A stretch of 64,000 nt of DNA from a virus. Positions 11,857-55,026 of the stretch are shown here, piece by piece (position 1 is the first letter of the stretch; each line of letters opens with the position of its first letter). Position numbers and translations under genes: made by a program. The stretch lies in UHGV virus genome UHGV-0057547; one strand, 5' to 3'. The notes beneath the pieces are model-generated. The model was not told the DNA's origin. It did not search any database and was given only the letters and a program-made list of their open reading frames with translations.

Positions 11857-12081
11857 GTGAAAAATATGAAAAAATTTTTAGAAAAAATAGGAAAGAAATT
11901 ATGTAAGGATTATTTACAAACTGTCAATGCAGAATCAGAAAACTTAAAACTTATGTTAGAAAAAAGTAGTAAAGATTTTGAAATGTTACATAAAGAAATC
12001 GAAGAATTAAGAAGTGAATTAAACATAGAAGAACCTAAAGAAATAATTGAAGAATTAGATGAAGAAGAAAAAGAAGAATAA
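11857..12081 (+). CDS. Small coiled-coil protein
   Basis: ORF with RBS aaaggtg. Confidence 0.35.
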   Translation: MKNMKKFLEKIGKKLCKDYLQTVNAESENLKLMLEKSSKDFEMLHKEIEELRSELNIEEPKEIIEELDEEEKEE

Positions 12082-12087
12082 AAAAAT

Positions 12088-12116
12088 AGCCTACTTAATA
12101 GTAGGCTATTTTAATT
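12088..12116 (+). terminator. Rho-independent terminator (atagcctact-taat-agtaggctat + T run)
   Basis: 10-bp perfect stem followed by tttaattttt. Confidence 0.6.
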
Positions 12117-12200
12117 TTTCTTTTAAACTTATACTAAGATTCACTATATTTATTATATCTATTTTTTTAATATTTTAAGATATTATTCATTAATAATTTA

Positions 12201-29452: not shown

Positions 29453-30006
29453 ATGGCAAAAGCAAAAAAAGAAATAAAGAAAATAATATGTACTACATGT
29501 GGAAGAGAATTGCCTGAAAAAGACTTTGGTAAATCTTATTCATTTAGAGATAAGTTAAATGGAAGATTACCGATTTGCAAAGACTGTTGTGCTAGTTTAT
29601 ATGATAAGTTAATGGTAGATTATCAAGATGAAATGAAGGCGTTATATAGATTTTGTATGATATTAGATTTATATTTTTCTAAAGATACAGTTATGGGATT
29701 AATAAGTAAGAATAGAAATTCTGAAAGTAATCTTGGATATCTATATGTATTAAAATATAATTTGGTACAATATAAAAATAAAACATTTCAAGATACAACA
29801 GCATTTGTAAATATATTTGGTATGACAGAAGAAGAGATGGAAGAAGCATTATATTTAAATACTGAAAAAACAAAAGAAGAAATAGAAAGAAAAACTAAGA
29901 AAATAGTTACTCCGGAAGTAATCAAACGTTGGGGCTCGGATTTAGAGCTAGACGATTATATTTTTCTTGAAGATAGATATAACCAAATGCTTCTTGCTTA
30001 TGATGT
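29453..30006 (+). CDS. Terminase small subunit-like protein, exon 1 (zinc-ribbon N-terminus)
   Basis: Position directly upstream of the terminase large subunit gene; ORF reads through into the intron for 6 codons; P1 pairing gatgt/gcgtc defines the 5' splice site. Confidence 0.4.
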
Positions 30007-31417
30007 AATTATGCGTCCTATGTAAAGAAATTTGCATAGAAAATCTCCTTAATTGCAGGTAATTCCTAAAGCCTTACACCAAAACGGAAGGTGAAAACCT
30101 AAACGGCAACGGTACGAAAGTAGAAAAAACGTAAGGATGGATATAAGGTTAAATCCTAAGTATCCAAACATATTTATATATGTTAAAATGGATGTTCATG
30201 CAGGTAAGATTCTAAATTAAATTATTTTAAATACTTAACTTTTAATAAGATAAATTGTATAATATAAATAAAGAGAGGTGATAAAATGGCAAAAAAGAAA
30301 TCTCATGAGGAGTTTGTTAATGAATTAAATATAAAAAATCCTAATATAAAAGTATTGAATAAATATGTAAATGTGTCTACGAAAATAATGGTTAAATGTA
30401 TAATTTGTGGAAATGAATGGATGGCAATACCTGGTAGTTTATTAAATGGAACTGGGTGTCCAAAATGTGCAAATAAAAATAAATCAAATAAACAAAGAAA
30501 GACAAAAGAACAATTTATAGAAGAGATGAAAATTATTAATCCTAATGTTAAAATAATCGGTGATTATATTAATAATCATACGAAGATAAAATGTGAATGT
30601 TTAATATGTGGGAATATATATTTTATGATACCTAAAAATTTAAGGAAAGGGCAAAATTGTCCTGAATGTGCTATGAAACAAAGAGTATCTAAAAAATCTA
30701 AAATTCATGAACAATTTATAATTGAATTAAATGATATAAATAAAAATATTAAAGTATCAAATAAATATATAAATGCAAAAACAATCATGGAATGTTCTTG
30801 TGATATTTGTGGTCATAAATGGAAATCTAATGCTGATAATTTATTAAGAGGTCATGGGTGTCCAAAGTGTGCAATAGAAAATAGTAGAGGTGAAAATAAC
30901 CATAATTGGAATCCTAATCTTACACAAGAAGATAGAGAAAATAAAAGAAATTATATGGAATATAAAGAATGGAGAAAAAATTGTTATGAACGAGATGATT
31001 ATACTTGTCAAGTTACAGGGAAAAGAGGAGTAGAATTATGCGTACATCATTTATATTCTTATAATAAATATTATTGTTTAAGAACTGCATTAGATAATGG
31101 TATAACAGTATCTAAAGAAATACATGAATTGTTTCATAAAATATATGGACGAGGAGATAACACATTAGAACAATGGGAAGAATTTATTAAAAGTTTAGAA
31201 TAATTTAATATGAATCAAAGCTCAACGACTATTCCGTAAGGAAGTAAAACCACAAGCTATTGGTGGAAGAAAAGGGAGATACCTTAACAGATAATGCTGA
31301 AGGTGAAGAAATAGTCTACTCTCATATGAAAGTATGAGCAGTTTTGTATATATACAAAACGGATTAAGTGTAGCGAACTTAATTGAATATAAAGGATAAG
31401 AATCCCTCATCCCTTTG
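30007..31417 (+). mobile_element. Group I intron carrying an HNH-type homing-endonuclease ORF
   Basis: P1 and P2 hairpin ctatg..catag; conserved 5' core; P7 elements caacGACTA ... gaaATAGTCTa; 3' end inferred from frame (ccctttg|g). Confidence 0.6.
30286..31203 (+). CDS. Intron-encoded homing endonuclease: three zinc-ribbon repeat modules plus C-terminal HNH domain
   Basis: Repeats CxxC...GxGCPKC; C-terminal CQVTG...CVHHL..YN...DNG motif; own promoter and RBS. Confidence 0.6.
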   Translation: MAKKKSHEEFVNELNIKNPNIKVLNKYVNVSTKIMVKCIICGNEWMAIPGSLLNGTGCPKCANKNKSNKQRKTKEQFIEEMKIINPNVKIIGDYINNHTKIKCECLICGNIYFMIPKNLRKGQNCPECAMKQRVSKKSKIHEQFIIELNDINKNIKVSNKYINAKTIMECSCDICGHKWKSNADNLLRGHGCPKCAIENSRGENNHNWNPNLTQEDRENKRNYMEYKEWRKNCYERDDYTCQVTGKRGVELCVHHLYSYNKYYCLRTALDNGITVSKEIHELFHKIYGRGDNTLEQWEEFIKSLE

Positions 31418-31696
31418 GTCATATCAAGAAATATGTATGAATTATTTACTCCTTAGAAAAGATAGAGGAAATGTTCAACTTCAAAAAAGTATTCAAGAAA
31501 TTAATAGTAAATTACAAGCTGACTGTAAAATGAAATTATCACAAATAGATAATGATGATGATGACAATGCTTGTTTTGGGAAATTTATAGATAGAATAGA
31601 ATTATATGAACCATGTAATAAAAAGTTACCATTTTTTGAAGATATAGATGGAATAAGACAATACTTAAAACGATGGAAACAAAAAGCCACGACTGT
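31418..31696 (+). CDS. Terminase small subunit-like protein, exon 2
   Basis: Only open frame; phase matches exon 1 (2-nt carry-over); P1 ctgt|at with IGS atatgcag. Confidence 0.4.
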
Positions 31697-32088
31697 ATAG
31701 AAATATGCAGTGGACACAGATTTAATTGCAGGTAATTCCTAAAGCCTTACACCAAAACGGAAGGTGAAAACCTAAACGGCAACGGTACGAAAGTAGAAAA
31801 AACGTAAGGATGGATATAAGGTTAAATCCTAAGTATCCAAACATATTTATATATGTTAAAATGGGTGTTCATGCAGGTAAGATTCTAAGTGATAATTTTA
31901 TATCATATGAATAAACTTCAACGACTAGAATGCAAATTCGTAGGGTGTAAGCGATTGACACTCGAAAAGGTCTGCCCTTAACAGGTAATGCTGAAGGTGA
32001 AGAAATAGTCTAGTCACTCTAGGAAACTAGGTGCTTAGAATTAACTAAGGTTTATAGTGTAGCGACTATAAGTAAATATTAACGTTTG
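31697..32088 (+). mobile_element. ORF-less group I intron (3' boundary 32088 or up to 32110)
   Basis: 5' half nearly identical to 30031-30285; contains caacGACTAg and ATAGTCTAg P7 strands; ends aacgtttg. Confidence 0.55.
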
Positions 32089-32110
32089 TTTTGCCTTTTG
32101 CGAAGCAGTG

Positions 32111-32259
32111 GAAATTAGCTAAAAATGATGTTTTAGGGGGAGAAGAAGGAATAGAAGATTATGAAGATGTAGATAAAATATACAATGAACAAAATAAGAA
32201 TAATACCGAAGTAGAAAATGAAGTAGAAGATGAAGTAGGTGAGGAAAACAATGACAAGT
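32111..32259 (+). CDS. Terminase small subunit-like protein, exon 3 (acidic C-terminus); start uncertain
   Basis: 53-codon open frame ending in a stop that overlaps the ATG of the next gene; boundary chosen by frame. Confidence 0.3.
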
Positions 32260-32401
32260 AGTCCAAAAGAAAATGTTGAAAAAGAAGAAATACTTTCCGA
32301 TGATGTCATGAAAAGTCCTCATAGAAAAAGAAGGAATTTATCCCAAAGAAAAAAAGATAGATTAAATGAAGGTATGAAAATATGGACTGCATTTTATAGG
32401 T
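32251..32401 (+). CDS. terL: Terminase large subunit, exon A
   Basis: ATG overlapping upstream stop; exon ends ttttatagg-t with P1 pairing to IGS gctta. Confidence 0.5.
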
Positions 32402-32747
32402 TAAATATTTAGCTTATTTTATTAGGTAACTAATAATCTAAACCCTTTGAATTGCTGGAAAGGACTTAGAGCCTATTGAACTACAACGTGACTAGAAATG
32501 GTGAGCGTGAATGTTTAAAAATCAATAGGATTGTTTAATCAGCAGGTAAGATTCTAAATTGCTATAAACAATATGAATAAACTTCAACGACTAGAGTTTA
32601 AACTCGTAGGCTACAAGTTATTGGTAGTCGAAGCGGAGGGCATCCTTTCATAGGATGAAGATATAGTCTGTTCTTATATGAAAATATAAGTAGTTCTTTA
32701 TTTAATAAAGAACAGTATGTATGTAGCGAATACATATGAACATTTAG
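32402..32747 (+). mobile_element. ORF-less group I intron
   Basis: Conserved 5' core (aattgctggaaagg...cagcaggtaagattctaa) directly joined to 3' core (aataaacttcaacgactag...gatatagtctg). Confidence 0.6.
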
Positions 32748-32863
32748 TAAACATCCATAGATTCGCACTGGATTTTTTGGGACTTAATTTATATCCGTTC
32801 CAAATTATATTGCTTTATATGATGAATATAATGTATAGCACTTGCCTAATATGTGCAAGGGGT
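32748..32863 (+). CDS. terL: Terminase large subunit, exon X (LxLxPFQ motif and start of P-loop ..CARG)
   Basis: Open in the phase set by exon A; ends ggggt before a P1/IGS gctcc and P2 hairpin. Confidence 0.5.
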
Positions 32864-34032
32864 AAATAGATATGCTCCATTATATAGAAATATATAATTA
32901 AAAATCAATCAAAATCGGTAAAAGTCTAAGTTTAATATTTACATTTTTTAGGAATATAAGTATAATATATAAAAGGGGTGAGATTAAATGGGTAAAATAA
33001 TAAATAAATATGATAGAATAGGTGAAACATCGATATCAAAAGAAGGATATGAAATGAAAATAATTGAATATATTGATGCAAGACATATTCTAATAGAATT
33101 TCAAGATGAACATAAAACTAGGTTAATGTGTCAATATGGTGACTTTAAATGTAGAAAAAATATTAAAAATCCATATCATCCAGCAGTATATAAAATAGGG
33201 TATTTGGGACAAGGTAAATATAATAAAAAAAATTATCAACGTATATATTGGACATGGAAAGATATGCTGAGAAGATGTTATAGTGAAGAGTACTTAAAAA
33301 GAGAACCTTCTTATAGAGGCTGTTGTGTTTGTGAAGAATGGCATAATTTCCAAAACTTTGCTAAATGGTATGAAGAAAATTATTATGAAGTTGAGAATCA
33401 AAGAATGCATTTAGATAAAGATATACTTGTAAAAATGAATAAAACATATAGTCCACAAACTTGTATATTTGTTCCACAAATAATTAATAGTTTATTTATA
33501 ACATCTAAGGCTATAAGAGGAGAATATCCTATTGGCGTTTCAAGAAAACAGAATAAATTAATTGTTCAAATTAATAAATATGATGAAAATATGAAAAAAT
33601 CAAAATATACAATGGTAAAAAAATTTGAAATAGAAGAAGTAAATGAAGCATTTTTTTGCTATAAAACAGAAAAAGAAAATGAAATAAAGAAAAGAGCCGA
33701 TTTATTTAAAGAATATATTCCAAAAAAATTGTATAATGCATTATATAAATATAAAATTGAAATAACAGATTAAATATGATAATACCGAGGTAAGATAGAA
33801 AATTAAAAAGTTCTATCCACTGTAGAGCATAGAGATTGAACCTTTGTAAGAACTATTATACAATAGTTCTTTTTTAATTGCAAAGAATAAAATATCTCCA
33901 AGAGTGATTGACACCTTACTATTAAGTTAAAGGTGAAAATATATGCCATACTGAGCTAGAATTGACTAGCTGATGAAAATGAGGGAAACCTCCAGAGGTT
34001 AAGATAAAAAACTTAACGTTAATAATGAATAG
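32864..34032 (+). mobile_element. Type-2 (T-family) intron carrying an HNH endonuclease ORF; 3' part is element T1
   Basis: P1 ggggt/gctcc, P2 attatatagaaatatataat, caaaatcggt block, internal promoter, ORF, then about 270-nt T1 element. Confidence 0.5.
32988..33773 (+). CDS. Intron-encoded HNH-family homing endonuclease (Bacillus-phage type: WTW-DML-RRC...CCVCEEW..F..F..W...LDKDIL motif)
   Basis: Diagnostic conserved motif set read directly; own promoter and RBS aaaagggg. Confidence 0.55.
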   Translation: MGKIINKYDRIGETSISKEGYEMKIIEYIDARHILIEFQDEHKTRLMCQYGDFKCRKNIKNPYHPAVYKIGYLGQGKYNKKNYQRIYWTWKDMLRRCYSEEYLKREPSYRGCCVCEEWHNFQNFAKWYEENYYEVENQRMHLDKDILVKMNKTYSPQTCIFVPQIINSLFITSKAIRGEYPIGVSRKQNKLIVQINKYDENMKKSKYTMVKKFEIEEVNEAFFCYKTEKENEIKKRADLFKEYIPKKLYNALYKYKIEITD

Positions 34033-34135
34033 TTATCGAAATCGTATATGACAGCAATATTCCTTTGTTGTAAAGCAATATTATATCCAAATAGTTTAAT
34101 TGTAGTTTCTTGTTCAACTAAGGAGCAAGCGAGAT
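34033..34135 (+). CDS. terL: Terminase large subunit, exon e34 (P-loop ..LSKSYMTAIF.. and LIVVSCSTKEQAR Q-motif)
   Basis: Joins exon X in phase to give ICARGLSKSY Walker A-like loop; ends gcgagat with IGS gtctc. Confidence 0.5.
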
Positions 34136-35567
34136 ATAATGTCTCCTATATTAAGTGATTAGTATAGCAAATCTTTTGAATTGCTGGAAACTCCTAAAGC
34201 TCAATTCACTACAACGTAAGGTTAAATCCTAAGCGTGAATGTTACGAAAGTAGAAAAAAGTAATTGAGATGGTATAAGGTTAAATCCTAAGTACTTTTAC
34301 AATGGACAATCAGCAGGTAAGATTTATATTTATTTTACTTTACTTTTAATAATTAATTTCGTATAATTTAAGTAAATGGAGGTGAAATATTATGGCATGG
34401 AAATATGAAGATGTGAAAAAGTATGTAGAATCATTTGGTTATAAATTAATATCAAAAGAATATAAGACTTGTAAAGATAAACTTCATTTAATGTGTCCTA
34501 ATGAAAGTGATTTTATTGTAAGATTTGATAATTTTAAAAATGCTAAACAACGTTGTAAATGTGATAAATGTAAAGGTAGAAATCCAAGAATGTTTTCTTA
34601 TGAATATGTAAAAGAATACATAGAAAAAGAAGGGTATAAATTAATATCAAAAGAATACAATGGAAATAAAAAACGTATAGAATTAGAATGCCCAAATGGT
34701 CATAAATGGAAAGTAAGATTTACTGATTTTAAAAATGGAAGAAGATGTTATTATTGTTCTTGTTGTTATAAACCTACCATTGGAGAAATTAGAATGAGAT
34801 TATCAAAATATGGTTATACATTGTTATCTGAAGAATATAAAAATGCAAATGAAAAAATTAATGTAAAATGCCCTAATGGTCATAAATATCCTACTACATA
34901 TCATAATTTTGATAATGGTAAAAGATGTCCATACTGTTATAATAAATATAGTAAAGGTGAGTATAGACTTATAAATTTATTTAATAATTATAAAATAAAC
35001 TATAAACATCAATATATTTTTAATGATTGTAGAGATATAAATCCTTTGCCATTTGATTTTTATTTATATGATTATAATTGTTGTGTAGAATTTGATGGAG
35101 AAGGGCATTATGAACCTAGAAATTGGAATGGAGCTTCAGATGAAAAAGCAATAGAAACATATAAAATAACGGTATTACATGATAAAATTAAAACACAATA
35201 TTGTAAGGATAATAGCGTAAAACTCATAAGAATACCATATTGGGAATTTAATAATATAGAAAACATTATTTGTCAAGAATTAAATATTAAAAGAAAACAA
35301 AGAAGAAAAGGTAATAAATTAAAATAAATATGAATAAACTTCAACGACTAAGTATCCTAGTAGTCTAGGTAGAGGAAGAGGTCTTATATTAATAAGATTG
35401 TGATATAGTCTGCTCTCATGCGAAAGCATGAGCAGTTCATAAAAGAACGGATAGAATAGTAACGATATTCTATTGAACATAAGGAATCTTATAAAGGAGA
35501 AGATAGCTAAAGAGCTATGTTCTCAATCGAAAATGTTAAATAGAGAAATTGCTAAAGTAGTCACTGG
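34136..35567 (+). mobile_element. Group I intron carrying a Zn-ribbon/DUF559 homing-endonuclease ORF (3' end approximate)
   Basis: P1 gagat/gtctc, P2 ctatattaagtgattagtatag; conserved 5' and 3' cores flanking the ORF. Confidence 0.55.
34392..35327 (+). CDS. Homing endonuclease, Zn-ribbon repeat modules plus DUF559/Vsr-like PD-(D/E)xK nuclease domain
   Basis: Three modules YEYVKEYIE..GYKLISKEY...CPNGH...F..FKNG.RC; C-terminal PLPFDFYL...VEFDGEGHYE...KLIRIPYWEF. Confidence 0.6.
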   Translation: MAWKYEDVKKYVESFGYKLISKEYKTCKDKLHLMCPNESDFIVRFDNFKNAKQRCKCDKCKGRNPRMFSYEYVKEYIEKEGYKLISKEYNGNKKRIELECPNGHKWKVRFTDFKNGRRCYYCSCCYKPTIGEIRMRLSKYGYTLLSEEYKNANEKINVKCPNGHKYPTTYHNFDNGKRCPYCYNKYSKGEYRLINLFNNYKINYKHQYIFNDCRDINPLPFDFYLYDYNCCVEFDGEGHYEPRNWNGASDEKAIETYKITVLHDKIKTQYCKDNSVKLIRIPYWEFNNIENIICQELNIKRKQRRKGNKLK

Positions 35568-35631
35568 TACTAATGAAACAGTGGTTATCTTTAACAATGG
35601 TAGTACCATTCAAGTTTAATGCTTTGCACAT
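35568..35631 (+). CDS. terL: Terminase large subunit, exon e35 (boundaries approximate)
   Basis: Only open frame; phases fit e34 (1-nt) and e38 (2-nt carry-over); P1 gcacat/gtgtgt. Confidence 0.35.
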
Positions 35632-35877
35632 TGAGTAATTAGTGTGTATAACCGATTGAATTGCTTGTAAATCCTAAAGCTAACTAAACTACAACGTAAC
35701 CTGAAAAGGTAAGCGTGAATGTAGCGAAAGCAGAAAAAATTAGTTAGATGGTATATGGTTAAATCCTAAGTACTTTTACAATGGAAGTCTAGCAGGGAAG
35801 ATTCTAAAATTATTTAAATTAAATATTTGACTTTTAATAATATAAGTTGTATAATATAAATAAATGGAGGTGATAAT

Positions 35878-36834
35878 ATGTCAAAAATAATGTGGGATGA
35901 AAAATCAATAAAAAAATTTGTTGAGCAATATAATCATGAATTCATTGAAATTATAGAATTTAATAACATAAGAAGTTTAATAAAAATTAAATGTAAAAAT
36001 AAAAAACACAAACCATTTGAAATAAAATTTACATCATTTAGACAAACTATGCTAAAAAATGGAAATTCTTGCAAAGAATGTAAAAAAGAAGCAAAAATGT
36101 TAAAAAGAGAAGATGTAGAAAACCTAATTAGAGAAAGAGGACTTATTTGGCTAGAGGGAGAGTATATAAGTAATGATACAAAAAATTTATTAGTATGGTG
36201 TGGAAATATTAATCATGAACCATTTTTAACAAGTCAAAATTATATATTATGTAATAATGGTAATAGTTGCAAAAAATGTGGTATAGAAAATAATGCAAAT
36301 AACAAAAGACTTTCATATGAGTATGTATATAACTATATAAAAAATGAGGGTGATGAACTATTATCAAAAACTTATGTAAACAATTCACAAAATTTAAAAA
36401 TTAAATGTGGTAAATGTAATAATGTATTTGAAACTTCATTTGGGCACTATCAAAATAAAGATAGAAGATGCTTATGTAAAGCTCAATCAAGAGGAGAATA
36501 TGAAATTAAACGAATATTTGATAAATATAATTTAATTGAAAATGTAGATTATGAATGTCAAAAAAAATACGAAGGATTAATTGGGGTTGGTGGTAGAAAA
36601 CTTTCTTATGATTTCTATATCAATAATACATTAATAGAATATCAAGGTTCTTATCATGATGGAACTGCTAGAAAACAAACAGATGAAGGATATGAGATAC
36701 AAAAGGAACATGATAAAAGAAAAAAAGATTATGCTAAAAATAATAACATTAATTTATTAGAGATATGGTATTGGGACTTTAATAATATAGAAAATATACT
36801 TATAGAAAATTTTAATTTAAATAATAATGAATAA
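35878..36834 (+). CDS. Homing endonuclease, Zn-ribbon repeats plus DUF559/Vsr-like domain
   Basis: Same modular architecture as 34392..35327; C-terminal LSYDFYI...IEYQGSYHD...NLLEIWYWDF. Confidence 0.55.
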   Translation: MSKIMWDEKSIKKFVEQYNHEFIEIIEFNNIRSLIKIKCKNKKHKPFEIKFTSFRQTMLKNGNSCKECKKEAKMLKREDVENLIRERGLIWLEGEYISNDTKNLLVWCGNINHEPFLTSQNYILCNNGNSCKKCGIENNANNKRLSYEYVYNYIKNEGDELLSKTYVNNSQNLKIKCGKCNNVFETSFGHYQNKDRRCLCKAQSRGEYEIKRIFDKYNLIENVDYECQKKYEGLIGVGGRKLSYDFYINNTLIEYQGSYHDGTARKQTDEGYEIQKEHDKRKKDYAKNNNINLLEIWYWDFNNIENILIENFNLNNNE

Positions 36835-37086
36835 CCTTCAACGAACAAGTATCCTAGTAGTCTAGGTAGTGGTCGGTATCCTTAGTAAAGGATAATGATA
36901 TGTTCTGCTCTCATGTGAAAGCATGAGCAGTTTATGTGATTAATTAAAATTCACAAATAAACGGTATAAGGTATAACGAACCTTATATGAACACAAATGC
37001 AGTAAACGCTTCTCAAAATACAAGAGGTAAATTTTTCATATCACTTTACATTTTTTAATAATTAGAGTATAATATAAACAAAGGGG

Positions 37087-37956
37087 GTGATTGAATTGAA
37101 ATGGACTAAGGATATGGAGCAATACTTAATTGATAATTATAATAAATTAACTATTGAAGAATTAGCTAAAAATATAGGAGTAACAAAATCCTCAATAATA
37201 AATAAAGCTTTTTCATTAAAAATAACAAATAATGTTAAAAATAAAGATAGAGGAAATATTAATATATTTAAAAATATAAATTCAGAAGAAAGTGCTTATT
37301 GGTTAGGATTTATATATGCTGATGGTTATATAGTTAAAAGTGAAAATGATAAAAAACATCATAATTATGAATTAGGTATAGAACTTCAAGAATCTGATAT
37401 TTCTCATTTGAAAAAATTTAATAAAATATTTAATGATTATTATAAAATAAAAACAAGAATCAGAAAAATGGATTCATTGGATATTTTAAATGGAAATGAA
37501 GTTTCAAATAGATTAAATAAAACTTGTTTGATAAGAATATATAATAAAGAAATAGTTAATGATTTAATAAAAAATAATATTGTTCAAAATAAAACTAATT
37601 CAGATATATTTCCTATTATAGATGATGACAATATGTTTTTACATTTTTTAAGAGGATATATTGATGGCGATGGTTCTTATGTTGTTGATAGTAAAAATAG
37701 ATACATAATATCAATTCAAGGTAATAATAAAAAATGTTTTGAATTTATATCTAATAAGTTATTAACAAGTTTTAATATTAATTCATATATAACAAAAGAT
37801 AAAACAGGTTGGAAATTAAATATAAGAAAAAAAGATGATGTTTTAAAATTAATAGATTTAATGTTTAATAATTCAAATATTTATTTAGATAGAAAATATG
37901 AGAAAGTAAAAGATATGAAAAAAGCCGTCTTTAATAGAAATATTAAAGATAATTAG
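37087..37956 (+). CDS. LAGLIDADG homing endonuclease (double-motif, single-chain)
   Basis: Two LAGLIDADG motifs: LGFIYADGYI and LRGYIDGDGS; GTG start after RBS aaaggggg. Confidence 0.7.
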   Translation: MIELKWTKDMEQYLIDNYNKLTIEELAKNIGVTKSSIINKAFSLKITNNVKNKDRGNINIFKNINSEESAYWLGFIYADGYIVKSENDKKHHNYELGIELQESDISHLKKFNKIFNDYYKIKTRIRKMDSLDILNGNEVSNRLNKTCLIRIYNKEIVNDLIKNNIVQNKTNSDIFPIIDDDNMFLHFLRGYIDGDGSYVVDSKNRYIISIQGNNKKCFEFISNKLLTSFNINSYITKDKTGWKLNIRKKDDVLKLIDLMFNNSNIYLDRKYEKVKDMKKAVFNRNIKDN

Positions 37957-38280
37957 AGAACAAAATCGGTCATAGTAAATCGTAAGATTAAGCTGATAAG
38001 AGAGCCTAAGTCCTTATAGGATATGGTAATACCGAGGTAAGATAGAAAATTAAAAAGTTCTATCCACCGTAACGCATAGAGATTGAACCTTTGTGAGAAC
38101 TATTATACAATAGTTCTTTTTTAATTACAAAGAATAAAATATCTCCAAGAGTGTTCTCCACCTTATCATTAAGTTGAAGGTGAAAATATATGCTGGACTG
38201 GGTATGAATTGACATACCATAATGCGAGGAAACTCCTAGAACTAGAGGATAAAAAGCCTTTAGGATAACAAAACGTTAAG

Positions 38281-38325
38281 ATGCCATGTACTCGTGGTTG
38301 ATGAGTATAGAATGATACAAGGAGT
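38281..38325 (+). CDS. terL: Terminase large subunit, exon e38 (Walker B ..CHVLVVDEYRMIQG)
   Basis: Open frame; ends ggagt paired to IGS gctcc of the next intron. Confidence 0.45.
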
Positions 38326-39865
38326 AATATATAGCTCCCTATGTTTATAAAAAGCATAGAAAAACTCTTTAATTGCTGGAAACTCCTAAAGTCCTATAAA
38401 CTACAACATGATTAGAAATAATGAGTGTGAATGTTACGAAAGTAGAAAAAATTATAGGAATGGTATATGGTTAAATCCTAAGTACTTTTACAATGGACAA
38501 TCAGCAGGTAAGATTTATATTTATTTTACTTTACTTTTAATAATTAATTTTGTATAATTTAAGTAAATGGAGGTGATAAAATGTTAAAATATAATAATGA
38601 TTATATTATCAATTATATAAATGAAAATTATAAAAATTTTAAAATAGTAAGTATAGATGGTAATGGAAAGGAAGCTATTGTAACTTTATGGTGTGGCGTT
38701 AGTGGTCATAAACATATACAATGCACATTTGCTAATCTTTTATATAAAGATAGTTTTCACTGTAGAGAATGTAAAAAAGATGATAAGATAAACGAAATAA
38801 AAAAGATTATAGGTGATGAATATCAAATAATCTCAATAGATTATATTAGTAATGATTGGATAAGAAGTAGAGCTATATTATGGTGTGGAATAGAAGGACA
38901 TGAATATATTGATGTATCTTTTAAATCAATAATAAATGGAAATATTATTGGATGTAAATTATGTAGAAAAAATAAACATATATTAAAAATAAAAGAAAAT
39001 GTAGAAAAAGTTAATAAAAAATTAATAGAAGTAAAAAAATATAATGAAAAAGATTATCACAAATCAAGAATAATAGTATCTTGTGGTAATGAAAAACATG
39101 AATTAATAGAGACTTCTTTAAATAAAATTATAAATTCAAACGTTAAATGTAAGGATTGCATAAAAGAAGATAATATTAATAAAATGATGCTATATATAAA
39201 TTCTACTCAATACAAATTTAATAAAATTGTAAAATATTGTGAATCAGATTATATAAAAAGTATGGTAGAAATAACATGTCCAAAAGATGAAACCCACATA
39301 TTTACAATGAGATTTTCTAATTTTAAATATGAAGGTAAAAGATGTCCTCATTGTGGTATGACTTATGGTGAACAAGAAGTTGCAAATGTATTAAAAAGAT
39401 ACAATATAAAATATAAATTTCAATATAAATATAAAGATTGTAGATTTATAAATCCTCTTCCTTTTGATTTTTATTTACCTGATTATAACATATTAATTGA
39501 ATACGATGGTAAACAACATTATGAATCAGTAGATTTATTTGGTGGAGAAAAAGGTTTTAAATATACAAAACAAAATGATGGAATAAAAAATCAATACTGT
39601 AAGAATAATAATATAAAATTAATAAGGATACCATATTGGTGTTTTAATAATATAGAAGAAATATTAATTAAAGAATTAAAAGTAAACATAAATAAATATG
39701 AATAAACTTCAACGACTAGAACGTAAGTTCGTAGGGTGTAAGTGATTGACACTCGAAATGGGAGTTACCTAATAATAGGTAGTGATATAGTCTAGTCTCA
39801 TATGAAAGTATGAGCAGTTCATAAGAGAACGTACATAACGTAGCGAATTATGTAGAATATAACGG
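38326..39865 (+). mobile_element. Group I intron carrying a Zn-ribbon/DUF559 homing-endonuclease ORF
   Basis: P1 ggagt/gctcc, P2 ctatgtttataaaaagcatag, conserved cores, P7 GACTA/TAGTC; ends ...gaatataacgg. Confidence 0.6.
38581..39705 (+). CDS. Homing endonuclease, Zn-ribbon repeats plus DUF559/Vsr-like domain
   Basis: Four Cys-pair modules; C-terminal PLPFDFYLPDYNILIEYDGKQHYE...NNIKLIRIPYWCF. Confidence 0.6.
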   Translation: MLKYNNDYIINYINENYKNFKIVSIDGNGKEAIVTLWCGVSGHKHIQCTFANLLYKDSFHCRECKKDDKINEIKKIIGDEYQIISIDYISNDWIRSRAILWCGIEGHEYIDVSFKSIINGNIIGCKLCRKNKHILKIKENVEKVNKKLIEVKKYNEKDYHKSRIIVSCGNEKHELIETSLNKIINSNVKCKDCIKEDNINKMMLYINSTQYKFNKIVKYCESDYIKSMVEITCPKDETHIFTMRFSNFKYEGKRCPHCGMTYGEQEVANVLKRYNIKYKFQYKYKDCRFINPLPFDFYLPDYNILIEYDGKQHYESVDLFGGEKGFKYTKQNDGIKNQYCKNNNIKLIRIPYWCFNNIEEILIKELKVNINKYE

Positions 39866-40021
39866 TTTTGATACATTAAACTCAGTATTAAGACCATTCT
39901 TAAACTGTGTTAGAATACCAAAATTTAAGAATAGAGATGATGGAAAATATGCAGATTATCCATCAGAGGAAAACCAAGAGATTTATTTGAGCAGTGCATT
40001 AAAACTAGTGCAAACTATGGT
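39866..40021 (+). CDS. terL: Terminase large subunit, exon e39
   Basis: 52-codon open frame in AT-rich DNA; phases consistent with both flanking exons. Confidence 0.45.
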
Positions 40022-40341
40022 GAAATGTAGATAGCTATAGTTGAGTATCAATCAAAATCGGTCATATGTATAGTGATATACATGGTAAGAAAGACTAAGT
40101 GTTAATTTAACATAAGTTGATACCGAGGTAAGTTAAGGAACTAAAAAGCCTTATCCACTGTAACGCATAGAGATTGAACCTTTGCAAGAACTATTATATA
40201 ATAGTTCTTTTTTAATTGCAAAGAATAAAATATCTCCAAGAGTGATTGACACACGCTACATTTATTGTGTGAAAATATATGCTGAACTTATAGGAAACTA
40301 TAAGAACTAAAGGATAAAAAGCCTTTAGGATAACAATTTGG
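40022..40341 (+). mobile_element. Standalone ORF-less T-family intron (element T3); 5' boundary 40022 or 40033
   Basis: P1 atggt/gctat, caaaatcggtcatatg block, about 300 nt, shares covarying hairpins with T1, T2 and T4; both boundary choices give a consistent terL frame. Confidence 0.45.
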
Positions 40342-41428
40342 GTTCGAGAATCATTGGAGTTATGACCTCTATTCTTCCCATGTTAAGAAAATGTTAGCAG
40401 GTGATGATTATTTTGTATGTAATTTACCTTATCAATTATCTGCTTATCATGGAATATTAACTAAAAAAAGAATACAAGATATTTTATCAGATGAGAATAT
40501 GTCGGAAATATCATTTATGATGGAATTTGAAGCATTATTTTATTCTGATAAAGATACTAGTTATTTTAAATCAAGTGACATATTACCTTGTAGAACATTG
40601 GAATATGCATGGTATCCTCCAACACCTGAGGAATATTATAGAAATAAAAATAAAGAGAAAAAGAGTTATCATTTGAAGAAATTAAATGATAAAGAACTTA
40701 GAATAATTAGTTGTGATATAGCCTTAATGAATAGTAAAAATGGACATGACAACGATAATGCCGTATTTACTTTTATAAGAAGTATTCCAAAGAATCAAAA
40801 TTATATATCACAAGTTTTATGGCAGGAAACCTATGATGGTTGTACAGCTAAACAATTAGCATTAAATATAAAAAGATTATATTTTGACACTCAAAGTGAT
40901 TATATAGTACTAGATACTGCCGGTAATGGGATATCTGTGTTAGATGAGTTAGGTGAATATACAACAGATGTAGAAAGAGGAATAGTTTATCCTCCATTGA
41001 AAGCAATGAATGATGAAAAATATGAAGAACGTTGTGGTTATTCTGAGGCACAAAAATCTATATTTTGTGTTAATGGTAACTCAAAGTTTAACCACGAAAT
41101 TGCAGTAACCCTTAAAACAGCATTTCAAAATAAAACCATTAGATTATTAAAAACACAATTTGAAGCAGATGACTTTATAGAAGGATATCATAAGATGTCT
41201 CCTAAAGAACAAGCTGACAAATTAATGCCTTATATTCAAACTTCTTTAATGCAAGATGAAATAACTCAATTGGAATATGAAATAAAAGATTCTTATATTA
41301 AACTTTATGAAACCACAGGTAAACGTAAGGATAGATATTCAAGTTTAGCTTATGGTAATTATTTTATAAGAGAAAGAGAAAAAAAATTAAAGAAAAAGAA
41401 AAAAGGTGGATTAGCTAATCTATGGTAG
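40342..41428 (+). CDS. terL: Terminase large subunit, final exon (C-terminal RNase H-like nuclease domain)
   Basis: RIISCDIALMNS..GHDNDNA, LDTAGNGIS and DRYSSLAYG catalytic-Asp regions typical of TerL nuclease domain. Confidence 0.65.
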
Positions 41429-41465: not shown

Positions 41466-42364
41466 GTGAGTGAAGAAAAAAAGCAAAAGAAGTTGTTTGC
41501 AGAAACTTCTGTAGCTAACAATGCACAAAAATATACAACTAAACCAGTTAAATATAGTGCTAGTGAAATAATGGGATTCTTAGAAGACCCACAAGCAAAT
41601 GCACTTAACTTACAAAAAGCTAGTATTTGGTTGTATTATAATAGTGGTATATACAATAGAATAATTAATAACTATGCTGGTATGAATATCTATGATTTAT
41701 ATTTATATCCAACTACAATTAGTAAATTTTCTAAATCAAAAAGAAAAATAACACCTGATAAATTATATAAAGATTATTTAGATATAAGTAATTTATTAGA
41801 AAGAATTAGTTGGAAATCAAATTATCGTAATATAGGAGTTAACCTTATGATACAAGGAGAAGTTTTCTTATATGATGTATCTGATAATCAAGGTACTATA
41901 TTAAAAGAAATACCAACTGAAATATGTAAAATATGTAAGGTTATAAATGATAATTTATATAAATATGCAATCAATGTAAATAAATTAGGTACAGCAGAAT
42001 ATTATTCAATGATGCCTTTAGGATTACAAAGATTATATGACCAACATAAAGCAGGTTCACTATCACCTGAACAATATTTAGGAACTGCTGGTTCAGGTTA
42101 TGTAATAGTAGATGACCCTGAAGCAATATGTTTAAGTTTAAATAATATGACTTCAACAAAATCTGTTCCAACTTTATCTTATTTATTTCCTTCATTATTA
42201 AGATTAATGGAAGAAGAAGAAAATGAAGTTGTGGAAAATAAAGCTAATAATTTAAAAATGATACATATGCAATATGATGTAGATGAAGAAGGCGAATCAA
42301 GAATAGCTGAAGCTGACCTTATAAAAATGCATAATTCAGCTAAAGCCAATTTACCAGTAGGAGT
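41466..42364 (+). CDS. Portal protein, exon 1
   Basis: Gene order after terL, size and acidic C-terminus of the spliced product; exon ends ggagt (2-nt carry-over). Confidence 0.5.
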
Positions 42365-43679
42365 AACATATAGCTCCCTATGTTTATAAAAAGCATAGAA
42401 AACTCTTTTAATTGCTGGAAACTCCTAAAGCTCAATTCACTAAAACATAATCTGAAAATGATAAGTGTGAATGTTACGAAAGTAGAAAAAAGTAATTGAG
42501 ATTACCCAAGGTTAAATCCTAAAGGTGAATGAATGGACAATCAGCAACCAAGATTTTAAGTTTAATTCATTGATTTTTAATATAATATAAAATAAAGTGA
42601 GGTAATTAATATAGCATTAAAATGGACTGAAGAAAAAATAATAGAATTTATAAATAATGAAAATTATATAGTAAAAAAAATAATAAGTGGAATTGGAAAA
42701 GAAACGAGATTATTGGTATGGTGTGGTAATCCTAATCATAAACCATATAAAGTTATTTTTAATAATTTTAAAAGAGGAACAAGATGTCAGTCTTGTTATG
42801 ATGAAAGAAGAAGAAAATGGACTGATGAAATTATTAAAGAATATTTAGAAAGTTATAAATATAAACTAATAGAAATTATAAAATCTAAAGGCGTTCAATC
42901 TATTGTAAAAATAAAATGTCCTAAATGTGGATATGTATATACTATTAAATTTGATACATTTAGAAATGGTCGTAGATGTATGCAATGTTTTCTTAAAGAA
43001 AATAGAATTAGTGAAGAAGAAATAAAAAAAATAATAAAAGATAATAAAGATATATTAATAGATATTGAGTATCATAGTTTAGATAGTATTTTATATTTAT
43101 ATTGTAATAAATGTAAAAAAAATTATCCTATTACATTTTATTGGTATTTAAAAGGCGGAAGATGCAAGTTTTGCAAAGAATCAAGAGGGGCTAGAAAAAT
43201 AAGAGAATATTTAGAAAATAAACAATATAATTTTAAACAAGAATTTAGAATTAAAGAATGTAGATATAAATTTCCATTACCATTTGATTTTATGGTTACT
43301 ATAAATGATAATATTATTTTAATAGAATTCGATGGGTTAGAACATTATGAACCTATTGAGTATTTTGGAGGTATAGTTAAATTTAATGAAAGAAAAAGAA
43401 ATGATAATATTAAAAATCAATATTGTAAAGATAATAATATAAAACTTATAAGGATTCCATATTGGGAATATGACAACATAGATGAAATATTAAATAAAGA
43501 ATTAAACTTAAAATAAGGTTCAACGACTAGAGCGTAAGCTCGTAGAGTGTAAGTGATTGACACTCGAAATGGAGAGTATCTAATAATAGGTAGTGATATA
43601 GTCTAGTCTCATATGAAAGTATGAGCAGTTCATAAGAGAACGGATTAGGAGTAGCGACCCTAATTGAATACAACGTTTG
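42365..43679 (+). mobile_element. Group I intron carrying a Zn-ribbon/DUF559 homing-endonuclease ORF
   Basis: P1 ggagt/gctcc; cores as in the other type-1 introns; 3' end aacgtttg fixed by reading frame. Confidence 0.6.
42713..43516 (+). CDS. Homing endonuclease, Zn-ribbon repeats plus DUF559/Vsr-like domain; conserved N-terminal region extends to an ATA at 42611 behind a good RBS (possible start-codon mutation)
   Basis: TTG at 42713 is the first canonical start; upstream in-frame IALKWTEEKIIEF matches paralog N-termini. Confidence 0.5.
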   Translation: MVWCGNPNHKPYKVIFNNFKRGTRCQSCYDERRRKWTDEIIKEYLESYKYKLIEIIKSKGVQSIVKIKCPKCGYVYTIKFDTFRNGRRCMQCFLKENRISEEEIKKIIKDNKDILIDIEYHSLDSILYLYCNKCKKNYPITFYWYLKGGRCKFCKESRGARKIREYLENKQYNFKQEFRIKECRYKFPLPFDFMVTINDNIILIEFDGLEHYEPIEYFGGIVKFNERKRNDNIKNQYCKDNNIKLIRIPYWEYDNIDEILNKELNLK

Positions 43680-44241
43680 TGTAAATACTAACCCTTTGAA
43701 AGTACAAGCATTAACATTACAAAGAACTGGTAATGTAAATGCAAGTAATAGACAAACATTAACTGAATTAGTTTATAATAATTCAGGTGTTAATAGTGAG
43801 ATATTCAATGGTAATCAAAGTAATAACCAAGCTATACTTACTGGAGTAACAGCAGATGAAATATATTGTGATGTTTTAAATAATGTATTTGAAAACTATA
43901 CTAAATATAGAGTAAAACAATTAAAAAGAAATCCTTTATGGATGGTTAGATTTGTAAGAAACACTCAATACAATAAACAAACTTTAGTAACAGAATCAAT
44001 GCAAGGTTGTACAGTAGGATTATCAAGAATGAAATTTTTAGCTTGTAATCATTATGCACCATTAGAAGCATTATCATTACTTGAATTTGAAACTGAAAAT
44101 GGTATAGATGAATTCTTTGTACCTCTAGCTACTTCTTACACTCAAAGTGGAGATGAAGAAGAAGAATTAGGTAGACCTAAGAATTCAGAAAACCCTGATA
44201 ATCAAAAAGATGTTGGCGAGAATCCTGATAGCACTAAATAA
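43680..44241 (+). CDS. Portal protein, exon 2
   Basis: Frame continuity with exon 1 across the intron. Confidence 0.5.
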
Positions 44242-45098: not shown

Positions 45099-45491
45099 GA
45101 TTAGCTCCCTATATGGAGTGATTCATATAGCAAACTCTCTGAATTGCTTGTAAATCCTAAAGCTAACTAAACTACAACGTGATTGGAAACAATGGGCGTG
45201 AATGTGGCGAAAGCAGAAAAAATTAGTTAGATGGTATATGGTTAAATCCTAAGTACTTTTACAATGGAAGTCTAGCAGGTAAGATTCTAAATTACTATAA
45301 GTGATATGAATAAACTTCAACGACTATTGAAATAATTGTAAGAACCTTATTACAATTAAAGTAAAGTACATTCAAGTGAATGGAAGTAGAGAGTGTCTTA
45401 TTTAATTAATGTAAGATAATGATATAGTCTCAACGTTTAGCGAAAGCTAAAGAAGTTCATAAGAGAACTGCATAAGAATAACGAACTTATG
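45099..45491 (+). mobile_element. ORF-less group I intron (3' boundary within 45483-45509)
   Basis: P1 ggagt/gctcc, P2 ctatatggagtgattcatatag, complete 5' and 3' cores without ORF. Confidence 0.55.
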
Positions 45492-46707
45492 TGAAGATAT
45501 TGCTATGGGGGAAGATTGTGTACTTAGTATGAATTTTTCTAAAGAAGATAGTGAATATAAAGAATATTTATCTTCTGTTGAAAAATTAAATAAATTATTA
45601 AAATGTCAAAGAGAGGAGGGATTAAGTGTGGATGTAAATAAAGAAACTTCTACTGTTGAAAACAAAGAAGAATTTGCTGAAGAAAACAAAGATGAAGAAG
45701 TTTGTCCTGAATGTGGTGAAAATCCTTGTGTATGCAAAAAAGAAAATCATGCAGTTAATGATGATGAAGAAGATAAAGCAGATGACAAAAAAGATGATGA
45801 TAAAGAAGACGATAAAGACAAAGAAGATGAATCTTGTAAAAAGAAAAATCATGCAACTGAAGATAAAGCAGATGATGATAAAAAAGACGATAAAGCAGAT
45901 GACGAGGAAGACGACGACAAAGATGATGATAAATCAGATGAAGAAGATGACAAAGATAAAGACAAAGAAGATGAATCTTGCAAAAAGAAAAATCATACAG
46001 TAGAAGATGACAAAGCAGACTTTGGACTTTCTTTAAATAATACATTTAAAGCTATAAGAAAACAATTAGAATCTTACACTTATGAATATGTGAGCTATTG
46101 GGGTGACACTTATACTTGGAGAAAATATTACGTAGTAGAATTAATCCCTGAAGATTCTGTTGTTGTTATAGAAGATGAAGAAGAAAATGAATTCTATGGA
46201 GTAACTTATTCTATAAATAATGATGATGTTACTTTAGATTTGGATAATAAAGCATTATATATTCAAGAATGGAGACCTAAAGAAACTAGTTCTGCTAGAT
46301 TTGAAAATACTGATAAAAAAGAAAAATATACTGCTAAAGATGAAATGTATCAAGCAGTTGGAAAAGAATTAAAAGAACTTAGACAATTTAAAGCTGATAT
46401 AGAAGCTCAAGAAGAAAAGGCTCAATTCGATGAAAAAGTTAATGCTATCTTATCACAATTTGAATTCAATGAAGAAGAAACTTCTGATTTAGTAGAAAAA
46501 GTTTATAACAAATCAATTAATTTAGATATGTTTGAAACTTGCTTATTTGCTTTAGAAGCTAAAAAGAATAGAGCAGAAAAAGAAAAATTTGCTAAAATGG
46601 AAAAAGAAAACAGTTTAAATATAGTTGATTCTAAAAAAGAAGAACCAGCAAAACCAAAATCAAGATTTGATTATCTATTAAAAGAATTTGGAAACAAAAA
46701 TAAATAA
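45492..46707 (+). CDS. Prohead protease/scaffold-like protein, exon 2 (acidic tandem repeats, coiled-coil C-terminus)
   Basis: Three repeats of KEDESCKKKNH.(T/V)EDKADD; scaffold-like composition. Confidence 0.4.
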
Positions 46708-47737: not shown

Positions 47738-49092
47738 AACTTAGTTTACTAGACAGCCCCCTATGTTTGTAAAAAGCATAGCAAATCCTTTTAATTGCTG
47801 GAAACTCCTAAAGCTCAATTCACTACAACGTAAGGTTAAATCCTAAGCGTGAATGTTACGAAAGTAGAAAAAAGTAATTGAGATTACCCAAGGTTAAATC
47901 CTAAAGGTGAATGAATGGACAATCAGCAGGGAAGATTTTAATTAACACTTAATTTTTTATAAGTTTATGAGTATAATATAAATAAGTGGAGGTGATGAAA
48001 ATGACAAGAAAGATTTGGAATGAAATTACAATAAAAGAATTTATAGAAAATGAAACAAATTATAAATTCATATCAATGGTTAAATTAAATGGAATGAAAT
48101 CAATAGTGCTAGTATGGTGCGGTAATACTAATCATAAACCTTATAAAGTTCGATTTGATGCATTTAAAGGTACTTCTAAAAAAGAAGGAACGAGATGTGA
48201 ACAATGTAGAAGAGAAAAGGATACTATTTGGACTAAAGATGAAATTATAAAATATGTAGAATCTCAAGATTATAAATTTATAAGATTTGTAAAATTTAAT
48301 AAATATGCAAGTATAATAGAAATTCAATGTAATAAAGGACACGAATCATATGAAACATACTTTAGTAATTTCTATAATAATAGAAGATGTTTTCAATGTC
48401 ATATAATATGGTCTAAAAAAGATATTATTAATTTTATAGAATCTCAAAATTATAAATTTATAAGATTTATAACATATGAAAAAAATAATAGTTTAATAGA
48501 GATAAAGTGTCCTAAAGGACATATGAATCAAGTTAGATTTAGAAAATTTAAAGAAGGAACTAGATGCACAGAATGTAATAAGTCTAAAGGTGAGGAAAAA
48601 GTAAAAGATATATTAAAAGAAATGTGTATAGATTTTAAATCACAATACAAATTCAAAGATTGTAAATGTAAAAAAGAGTTGCCATTTGATTTTTACATAC
48701 CTTCATTAAATATTGCAATAGAATATGATGGAATACAACATTTTGAAATATTACCACATTGGGGTGGTATTGATAAACTTATAGAAACTAAAATACATGA
48801 TGAAATAAAAACACAATATTGTAAAAGAAAAAGAATAAAACTTATTAGAATTCCTTATTGGGAATTTAAAAATATAGAAAACATACTTATAAAAGAATTA
48901 GTGTTAAATTAGAATAACCTTCAACGACTAGAGCATAAGCTCGTACACTCAAGTGGGTGGAAATGGAGGATACCTAGAAATAGGTAGTGATATAGTCTTG
49001 TCTCATGTGAAAGCATGAGCAGTTCATAAGAGAACGGATTAGGAGTAACGACCCTAGTCGAAAATAAACGCAGAACTGATTTTGCTGAATGG
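47738..49092 (+). mobile_element. Group I intron carrying a Zn-ribbon/DUF559 homing-endonuclease ORF
   Basis: P1 ggggt/gcccc; P2 ctatgtttgtaaaaagcatag; 3' end ...gattttgctgaatgg fixed by frame. Confidence 0.6.
47986..48912 (+). CDS. Homing endonuclease, Zn-ribbon repeats plus DUF559/Vsr-like domain
   Basis: ELPFDFYIPSLNIAIEYDGIQHFE...KRIKLIRIPYWEF. Confidence 0.6.
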   Translation: MEVMKMTRKIWNEITIKEFIENETNYKFISMVKLNGMKSIVLVWCGNTNHKPYKVRFDAFKGTSKKEGTRCEQCRREKDTIWTKDEIIKYVESQDYKFIRFVKFNKYASIIEIQCNKGHESYETYFSNFYNNRRCFQCHIIWSKKDIINFIESQNYKFIRFITYEKNNSLIEIKCPKGHMNQVRFRKFKEGTRCTECNKSKGEEKVKDILKEMCIDFKSQYKFKDCKCKKELPFDFYIPSLNIAIEYDGIQHFEILPHWGGIDKLIETKIHDEIKTQYCKRKRIKLIRIPYWEFKNIENILIKELVLN

Positions 49093-54639: not shown

Positions 54640-55026
54640 AATGAACTGTAACTAGTACAGCGTATGTAAAGAAATTTACATAGGACACAACCTTAAAACC
54701 AGTAACTCCTAAAGCTCAACAACTACAACAAAGGATAGAATCAGAAACCTTTGTGAATGTGAGGAAACTCTGAAACAATAGTTGAGATGATATATGGCGA
54801 GAGCCTAAGTATTGTAACAATGGATGTTTGGTCGCCAAACTTAGAAATAAGAAGGTCAAACGACTATGATTTGAAAGAATCATAAAGCCTCAAGCGAATG
54901 GAGGAAGAAATGGGTTGCCCCTAACAGATAATGCTGAGGGTGAAGAAATAGTCTAGTCACTCTAGGAAACTAGGTGCTTAGAATTGACTAAGGTTTATAA
55001 GTTGCGATTATAAATAAATATTAACG
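54640..55026 (+). mobile_element. ORF-less group I intron directly downstream of the previous intron, separated by a putative micro-exon within ~54611-54650
   Basis: P2-like hairpin atgtaaagaaatttacat, 5' core aactcctaaagctcaacaactacaac...tagttgagatgatatatgg (ctcaaca/tagttgag covariation), P7 caaacgactatg...gaaatagtctag. Confidence 0.5.

Follow-up and report, generated by a model that had tools for sequence, protein, structure and literature searches.

Seven predicted group I introns divide the terminase large subunit gene of an SPbeta-like phage into eight exons

Where is the terminase gene of the virus genome UHGV-0057547? The window analyzed here, a stretch of 64,000 nucleotides (nt) from this genome, has no long terminase open reading frame (ORF) between 32.2 and 40.3 kb; the ORF list for the region holds five endonuclease-like ORFs and a 345-amino-acid (aa) ORF at 40391-41428. 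A first-pass annotation made from the sequence had proposed that one terminase large subunit gene (terL) spans 9.2 kb as a series of exons that have to be joined in the RNA, with its motif set intact in no single ORF. Homology, intron-less alleles and ribozyme structure all point the same way: no exon piece corresponds to a complete ORF, and we regard it as very likely that terL is a single gene of eight exons and seven group I introns, located at 32251-41428 on the + strand of a phage resembling SPbeta and phiCD211. Rejoining of the exons by splicing, in whatever order and with whatever efficiency, is what we infer from these lines of evidence.

Searches of the window with SPbeta YonF and phiCD211 TerL (tblastn) recovered seven colinear pieces in three frames of the + strand, between 32350 and 41428, and an eighth piece, AVNASQNTRG at ~37000, was spotted by eye between two endonuclease ORFs. 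Joined together, they form a coding sequence (CDS) of 1800 nt that encodes 599 aa with no internal stops, longer than the ~575 aa first proposed. The expectation of a multi-exon gene with at least seven exons was borne out in kind, although the 29-nt exon at 37000-37028 had been missed, and the smallest exons measure 29 and 49 nt instead of 45-64 nt. When the junctions were initially placed by a U|...G rule, the product was 601 aa long and free of stops, and comparison with homologues revealed errors of +1, +4, and -3 residues at J3, J4, and J6 (J1 to J7 being the joints at introns I1 to I7); these errors, 3-12 nt in size, were corrected from homologues and intron-less alleles.

The resulting exons all lie on the + strand. 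Exon 1 (32251-32401, 151 nt) starts at an ATG preceded by GAGGAAAA, matches YonF residues 32-50 by tblastn, and ends in ..UAUAGGU. Exon 2 (32748-32863, 116 nt; tblastn, alignments) encodes ..NIHRFALDFLGLNLYPFQ..LICARG, including the first half of Walker A, and exon 3 (34033-34134, 102 nt; tblastn, intron-less alleles, alignment) continues with LSKSYMTAIF..LIVVSCSTKEQAR. Exon 4 (35485-35614, 130 nt; tblastn, intron-less alleles, alignment) runs from NLIKEKI to NNGSTIQ and the opening base of an Ala codon. The other two bases of that codon begin exon 5 (37000-37028), a 29-nt micro-exon identified from alignments that goes on to encode VNASQNTRG; the joined sequence at J4 reads CAAG|CAGUAAAC. Three residues of exon 5 (N, R, and G of NTRG) are invariant in 13 homologues, and the exon is contiguous with its neighbors in three intron-less alleles (sister loci L006, L007, and L008). 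Walker B lies in exon 6 (38276-38324, 49 nt; LRCHVLVVDEYRMIQG; tblastn, intron-less alleles, alignment), while exon 7 (39865-39999, 135 nt; tblastn, alignment) encodes GFDTLNSVLRPFL..EIYLSSA, ending with the SSA coupling motif and the first base of a Trp codon. Exon 8 (40341-41428, 1088 nt with its stop codon; tblastn E 3e-65 and 6e-70) supplies the end of the ATPase domain and the nuclease domain, and is represented in public databases as a 345-aa "hypothetical protein" (P0026).

Motifs were found where the first-pass annotation had put them: LGLNLYPFQ in exon 2, ICARG|LSKSYMTAIF across J2, LIVVSCSTKEQAR in exon 3, HVLVVDEY in exon 6, and the nuclease domain in exon 8. All seven introns fall inside the first 712 nt of the CDS, which correspond to the ATPase domain. 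I1 sits near the N-terminus, I2 within Walker A, and I3 after TKEQAR; I4 and I5 flank the NTRG segment, I6 follows the Walker B Asp-Glu by seven residues, and I7 comes right after SSA.

Might the pieces instead be translated separately and assembled as proteins, or be joined by inteins? Some phage genes are split by free-standing endonuclease genes, and five of the intervening segments here do carry endonuclease ORFs. Against such protein-level assembly, the exons of 29, 49, 102, and 116 nt have neither a start codon nor a ribosome-binding site, four joints (J1, J4, J6, and J7, all phase 1) fall inside codons, and the intervening sequences carry stops in the exon frame as well as ribozyme structures; domain searches of the window's ORFs found no Hint/intein domain. 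We consider it to have almost no chance of being correct. Group II introns and inteins were likewise ruled out as candidates, given the lack of a reverse transcriptase or Hint domain, intron lengths of 341-1540 nt, and the exon-frame stops.

How well are the junctions fixed? The conceptual protein matches ~20 uninterrupted proteins of 594-603 aa (67-72% identity, 95-100% coverage, E 2.5e-289 to 2e-270) and aligns with them across its exon joints as the first-pass annotation had implied, with all seven joints free of gaps. The last-exon ORF (P0026, 98% identical) occurs on at least 24 contigs from public assemblies, of which we compared ten loci from ten different samples; in at least six samples the locus lies on contigs of 170-210 kb. 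Mapping the spliced CDS onto these sister contigs by blastn showed exons that are 92-100% identical and a set of introns that differs per contig. L006 is without I1, I2, I4, and I5; L007 without I2 to I5; L004 without I2 and I3; L003 without I2, I4, and I6; and L012 without I5 and I6. From J1 to J6, the intron-less alleles place every junction at exactly the nucleotide predicted by the spliced model built from homology (at J1, L006 reads TATAGGC|TAAACATCC). No intron-less sister was present for J7 among the compared loci; L007 and L011 have an intron of their own 4 nt downstream of J7 and are uninterrupted at the J7 site itself. The codon split at J7, U|GG, yields a Trp that is present in 13 of 13 aligned homologues. 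These comparisons establish which segments are exons and where their exact junctions lie.

The spliced product has Walker A, Walker B with its catalytic Glu, the coupling motif, and the two-domain fold of a terminase large subunit, with a T4 gp17-type ATPase and an RNase H-like nuclease. It matches PHROG 2 ("terminase large subunit," E 2.7e-20), and the family profile matches T4 gp17 in the PDB (3ezk). A structure model (AlphaFold2, AF2; mean predicted local distance difference test score, pLDDT, 86.7) was made of P0001, an uninterrupted homologue with 72% identity to the spliced protein. Its best Foldseek matches were T4 gp17 (3cpe, E 1.6e-16), PhiV-1, HK97, Sf6, and D6E (E 1.6e-16 to 1e-11), with ATPase-only and nuclease-only structures (nuclease domains 5m1f and 3c6a) ranked lower. 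ARGLSKS, VVDEY, and LSSA are conserved among the aligned homologues. The P-loop ARGLSKS had been described as deviant; it is present as described, but is not peculiar to this phage, being common to 11 of 13 aligned homologues. The label "Q-motif" given to LIVVSCSTKEQAR is probably wrong, since the adenine-binding Q motif of T4 gp17-type ATPases is at the position of a Gln ~20 residues upstream of the P-loop, here Q69 of "PFQ," which is invariant in 72 sequences. The gene order YonG-like, TerL, portal is the yonG-yonF-yonE order of SPbeta, as it is in phiCD211. SPbeta YonF and phiCD211 TerL are terminases orthologous to that of the window (37% identity over the C-terminal 330 residues), and their genes are uninterrupted.

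What, then, are the intervening sequences? I1, I3, I4, and I6 belong to one class, termed class A, whose group I architecture is evident from Rfam covariance-model (CM) alignments. I1 (32402-32747, + strand, 346 nt, no ORF) matches RF00028 at 92.8 bits (E 1.6e-22; the gathering score is 50 bits) and has a canonical U(-1)•G, a terminal G, and ~57 nt of extra 3' hairpins past the end of the Rfam model at 32690; its boundaries were set by the intron-less L006 allele. A 3' site at that model end was tried and rejected; it is in frame but adds 19 residues, and is contradicted by L006. The other three, also on the + strand, carry ORFs of ~1 kb in the P6 loop: I3 (34135-35484, 1350 nt) has a 311-aa endonuclease ORF at 34392-35327, I4 (35615-36999, 1385 nt) a 318-aa endonuclease ORF at 35878-36834, and I6 (38325-39864, 1540 nt) a 374-aa endonuclease ORF at 38581-39705. 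Intron-less alleles exist for each (L007 and L004 for I3, four apiece for I4 and I6), and ORF-less orthologues score against RF00028 at 77.6 and 79.3 bits (I3, in L006 and L008) and 66.1 bits (I6, in L007). All four class A introns of terL match both 5'-half and 3'-half profiles with nhmmer E ≤ 1e-26 (1e-48 and 2e-29 for the halves of I4). The I4 core shares 90% identity over 119 nt with the tail-tube intron of Staphylococcus phage phiIPLA-RODI (megablast), and class A cores in general share 80-90% identity over ~120 nt with introns of Staphylococcus Herelleviridae.

The remaining three introns resemble one another by blastn (I2 and I5 each showing similarity to I7) and make up class B, again all on the + strand. 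I2 (32864-34032, 1169 nt) interrupts the P-loop (ARG|LSKS), contains a 261-aa endonuclease ORF at 32988-33773, and is absent from five intron-less alleles. I5 (37029-38275, 1247 nt) carries a 289-aa LAGLIDADG ORF (37087-37956) in its P1 loop, placing its guide sequence GCCGUCUU at 37927, within the 3' end of the ORF and 900 nt from the splice site; intron-less alleles exist, and an ORF-less copy in L003 is homologous to it. I7 (40000-40340, 341 nt) has no ORF in the window and a 263-aa ORF in sister phages; its P1 is UGCAU/GUGCA with a U•G pair. Class B relatives split tape-measure genes in Streptococcus phages MissB1, Javan355, and phiJH1301-1, in Clostridioides difficile phage phiCD211, and in Staphylococcus phage 6ec. 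The topology drawn from the alignment comprises P3, P4, P6, P7, a P7.1/7.2 arm, P3', P8, P7', P9, and P9.1. In a covariation test on 36 diverse sequences, I7 among them, 95.1% of helix cells were paired, compared with 69% in shuffles and 29-45% when the helices were slid. Compensatory changes on both sides were seen in 35 of 47 pairs, including all six pairs of P3, which crosses P7 (the P3/P7 pseudoknot). P3, P6, P7.1, P8, P9, and P9.1 covary; P4 and P7 are invariant and hence uninformative. Because the fold covaries and both the P1 U•G and the terminal G are present, class B is predicted to be a group I ribozyme with an IA-like build. In the phiCD211 tape-measure gene (L031, 28653-29156), a class B element is followed ~22 nt later by an annotated Rfam group I intron, an arrangement that suggests two tandem introns with a micro-exon between them in a published genome.

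Several observations weigh against reading terL as an intact, spliced gene. The comparison with terminase profiles that the first-pass annotation had proposed came out divided: beside the PHROG match stands a Pfam Terminase_6N score of 19.9 bits, under the 22-bit cut-off. The ORF-containing copies of I3, I4, and I6 in the window do not reach the RF00028 gathering score, I4 having no RF00028 CM match at all and being recognized by nhmmer profile matches only, and the class B introns I2, I5, and I7 give no RF00028 match even at E up to 10. Finally, canonical cleavage at I3 and I4, and at I6 if its boundaries are those of the intron-less alleles, followed by ligation after the terminal G, would make the joined sequence one base too long, producing a UAA stop at I3 and a UGA stop at I6.

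Such stops would also fit a reading of terL as the decaying pseudogene of a defective prophage, full of endonuclease insertions and never reassembled. The element may be a prophage, as relatives are binned into bacterial metagenome-assembled genomes (MAGs), and gene callers report terL on public contigs as fragments only. Decay is nevertheless hard to reconcile with eight exons that are in frame and 92-100% identical across contigs, with the retention of invariant catalytic residues, or with insertions that are nucleotide-precise, at conserved sites, and equipped with intact ribozyme cores. The same pattern recurs in the portal and other structural genes, and the locus recurs on long contigs (170-210 kb) in at least six different samples. 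We therefore judge a decayed terL to be very unlikely, and a gene restored by splicing remains the reading we favor.

If the gene is spliced, where exactly is it cut? The first-pass annotation held that the splice rules are obeyed at every junction, and the 3' half of that statement stands: with boundaries taken from intron-less alleles or homology, seven of seven terL introns end in G, as do eight further class A introns in the window. The 5' half does not. The last exon base is the wobble U for I1, I2, I5, and I7 (a synonymous change relative to the intron-less allele at I1 and I2), but the insertions at I3, I4, and I6 run exactly from U to G, behind an exon base that is A at I3, G at I4, and, on the likeliest placement, G at I6. 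In these three the P1 U•G pair is present, with its U being the first base of the insertion, and the Rfam model aligns the first insertion U of an I3 orthologue to the conserved splice-site U. The J3 joint reads GCGAGA|AAUCUU if U...G is removed, the canonical alternative being GCGAGAU.... At J6 the choice is between GGAG|GUUUUG and GGAGU|UUUUG; I6 is the only one of the three for which a fully canonical reading, with U(-1) and a terminal G, keeps the frame as well, at the cost of a Gly to Val change, and the U...G reading fits best. Retaining the U and moving the 3' site by one base loses the terminal G in most cases and alters residues. Canonical in-frame solutions at I3 and I4 that use other G positions upstream or downstream were also tried, and gave only stops or 7-residue insertions. 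P10 pairing gives no basis for choosing between the boundary readings.

The anomaly extends beyond terL, since a U...G insertion with a purine at -1 characterizes nine class A introns of the window between 30.0 and 55.0 kb (I3, I4, I6, those of the portal and the first YonG-like site, and four others). In one of these, A10 (53.3-54.6 kb), the exons and the intron-less allele have come to differ at the DNA level, yet the protein sequence Gly-Asp-Asn is kept only under the U...G reading. These data tentatively suggest that an endonuclease-bearing class A lineage (terL I3, I4, and I6 plus six introns in genes for the portal, the YonG-like protein, and the tail region) leaves the transcript precisely as U...G, a proposal that we regard as possible and still somewhat less likely than its opposite. 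Cleavage at the 5' end would then come one base before the wobble U of P1, following a purine held in a Watson-Crick pair. The U-G pair is treated as completely conserved (PMC11835236), the closest Staphylococcus-phage relative, phiIPLA-RODI, has a canonical U(-1)•G (its junction derived from phage G1), and we found no precedent for cleavage 5' of the wobble U in the literature searched. Annotated joined CDSs of homologous introns were sought in Staphylococcus-phage records and none was found; the accessible portion of the Bastillevirinae supplement likewise gives no mapped junction coordinates.

A broader possibility is that terL splicing departs from the standard scheme in one of two ways: either it is partly non-canonical in this sense at I3, I4, and probably I6, or the micro-exons are partly skipped, throttling terminase production. 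Phage exons that lie between neighboring group I introns are known to be skipped, as in Twort orf142 and SIOphi terL (PMC11878797), and skipping of the 29-nt or the 49-nt exon here would cause a frameshift. Taking both ways together, we give this possibility nearly an even chance. If the U...G excision is real, these introns would "bring their own U" and need none at the target, which would relax target choice and could help explain the colonization of many sites in one gene; a splice-site rule taken to hold for all group I introns would have to be revised if cDNA confirmed the U...G boundaries.

How did so many introns come to occupy a single gene? Homing-endonuclease ORFs are present in five of the seven (I2, I3, I4, I5, and I6). 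Those of I3, I4, and I6, candidate EDxHD/Vsr-like endonucleases of the I-Bth0305I type, match PHROG 559 (E 2e-64 to 8e-42), the family of the VSR endonuclease in Bacillus-phage terL introns (VSR/EDxHD-like; PMC11878797). Pfam searches of I3/I4/I6-type ORFs gave N-terminal CapR and zinc-ribbon matches only, as on the I3 ORF, and the I6 ORF had no match among PDB sequences at E up to 1 (phmmer). The I2 ORF belongs to PHROG 953 ("HNH endonuclease") and is 40% identical to the 263-aa ORF of the sister-phage I7; Pfam AP2 matches only weakly (E 7e-4, short of the cut-off), and solely on the sister I7 ORF in L003. The I5 ORF matches Pfam PF14528 (LAGLIDADG_3) at 54.2 bits, well above the 22.5-bit cut-off (E 1.7e-14). 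Family membership and the presence/absence polymorphism of the introns are direct observations; the encoded proteins are predicted to be active endonucleases.

The best-supported account is one of seven self-splicing mobile introns in one essential gene, spread and kept by homing, with sites clustered on the most conserved ATPase motifs. The primary transcript would fold into seven ribozymes that excise themselves, and ligation of the eight exons would yield the 1800-nt mRNA for a 599-aa terminase. In co-infection, the endonucleases would cut intron-less alleles and the intron would be copied in; such homing would account for the different intron subsets at identical sites in sister phages. 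Across the population we counted nine terL insertion sites (CDS positions 151-716) and three to seven introns per sister phage, so that homing can be studied here as a natural experiment. Of the alleles examined, that of the window carries the highest load, with seven introns. An extra insertion after CDS position 551, inside LVV|DEY, occurs in sister phages (L005, 7458-7480; L004, 9121-9449), and this site leaves L005 with an exon of 23 nt that has a class B intron on either side.

Elements of this kind are known. Lactobacillus phage LL-H has a terL group I intron with an endonuclease gene. PMC11878797 describes terL group I introns with endonuclease genes in Herelleviridae (Bacillus Bastillevirinae and Staphylococcus phages Romulus/Remus); these share with the window the host gene, a ribozyme with an endonuclease ORF in a peripheral loop, and PHROG 559. 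The terL genes of Herelleviridae and LL-H have one to three introns, whereas that of the window has seven, of two ribozyme classes, with exons down to 29 nt (23 nt in L005). Descriptions of phage genes with several group I introns reach three per gene, in Twort orf142 and in the terL and pol genes of Bastillevirinae (PMC11878797). Twort orf142, a tail tube gene with three introns to the seven seen here, is likewise a late gene with multiple introns, and its introns and the Kayvirus tail-tube intron have class A-like cores; the phiIPLA-RODI boundary is canonical, in contrast to the wobble U inside the insertion at I3, I4, and (as preferred) I6. For the Zeta group of crAss-like phages, a major capsid protein gene split into five fragments and as many as 14 introns in one genome are reported (Yutin et al. 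2021, PMC7886860). The crAss-like phages (Zeta, Delta) are also from the gut, with dense group I introns in core genes that break automatic annotation, but their maxima of five fragments and 14 introns per genome compare with eight fragments and 15 introns in 33 kb of the 64-kb window, and the phage lineage (SPbeta-like) and likely host (low-GC Bacilli) differ.

The density, the micro-exons, an Rfam-invisible intron class, and the boundary anomaly are what is unusual here. No phage gene with more than about four introns was found in the literature searched, and the intron density appears to be without precedent there. Seven introns and exons of 29 and 49 nt raise the questions of how the RNA folds without exon skipping, in what order it is spliced, and whether the intron load times or throttles packaging. 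Because terL is a standard marker for phage detection and classification, it matters that public databases hold only the 345-aa hypothetical protein for this gene. Class B is a blind spot of Rfam, undetected although its core motif is present in at least 119 IMG/VR contigs.

What kind of genome tolerates this load? The window has a G+C content of ~25%, no tRNA genes, and a + strand late-gene block from ~29 kb on, which holds all 15 group I introns of the window, within 33 kb; no class A or B copies were detected at 1-29000. Relatives occur on the 170-210 kb metagenome contigs, at least some of them from human-gut cohorts judging by sample names, and others lie within MAGs labelled Bacilli bacterium, Candidatus Scatovivens, Anaeroplasma, and Sarcina. 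Based on the SPbeta-like late-gene order and these gut and MAG relatives, the element is likely a phage or prophage of the SPbeta type from low-GC Firmicutes of the gut, with a low-GC Bacilli host.

Twelve of the introns, all on the + strand at 30.0-63.1 kb, are of class A by half-profile search. Upstream of terL, a split YonG-like gene (29453-32261, + strand) has its first exon at 29453-30005 and a second extending to ~31697. Its intron 1 (~30006-31394) contains a 305-aa HNH/CapR ORF (30286-31203), its second intron is an ORF-less group I intron (31687-32033, RF00028 45.7 bits), and a probable third exon leads to an ORF that ends at 32261, overlapping the terL start. Downstream, the portal gene (41466-44241, + strand) is split by a class A intron at ~42364-43674 with a 267-aa PHROG 559 ORF (42713-43516), and is uninterrupted (486-487 aa) in L007, L011, and L012. 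Five more class A introns on the + strand (45101-45499, 47747-49067, 53254-54595, 54660-55023, and 62723-63087) lie in downstream structural genes (YonD-like, YonB-like, and others). None of the five is reported by Rfam at the gathering threshold; two contain 308-aa ORFs, and four have intron-less sister alleles. At 12001-14000 of the window, G+C rises to 0.31-0.38, from ~0.25 elsewhere, and the GC skew is reversed.

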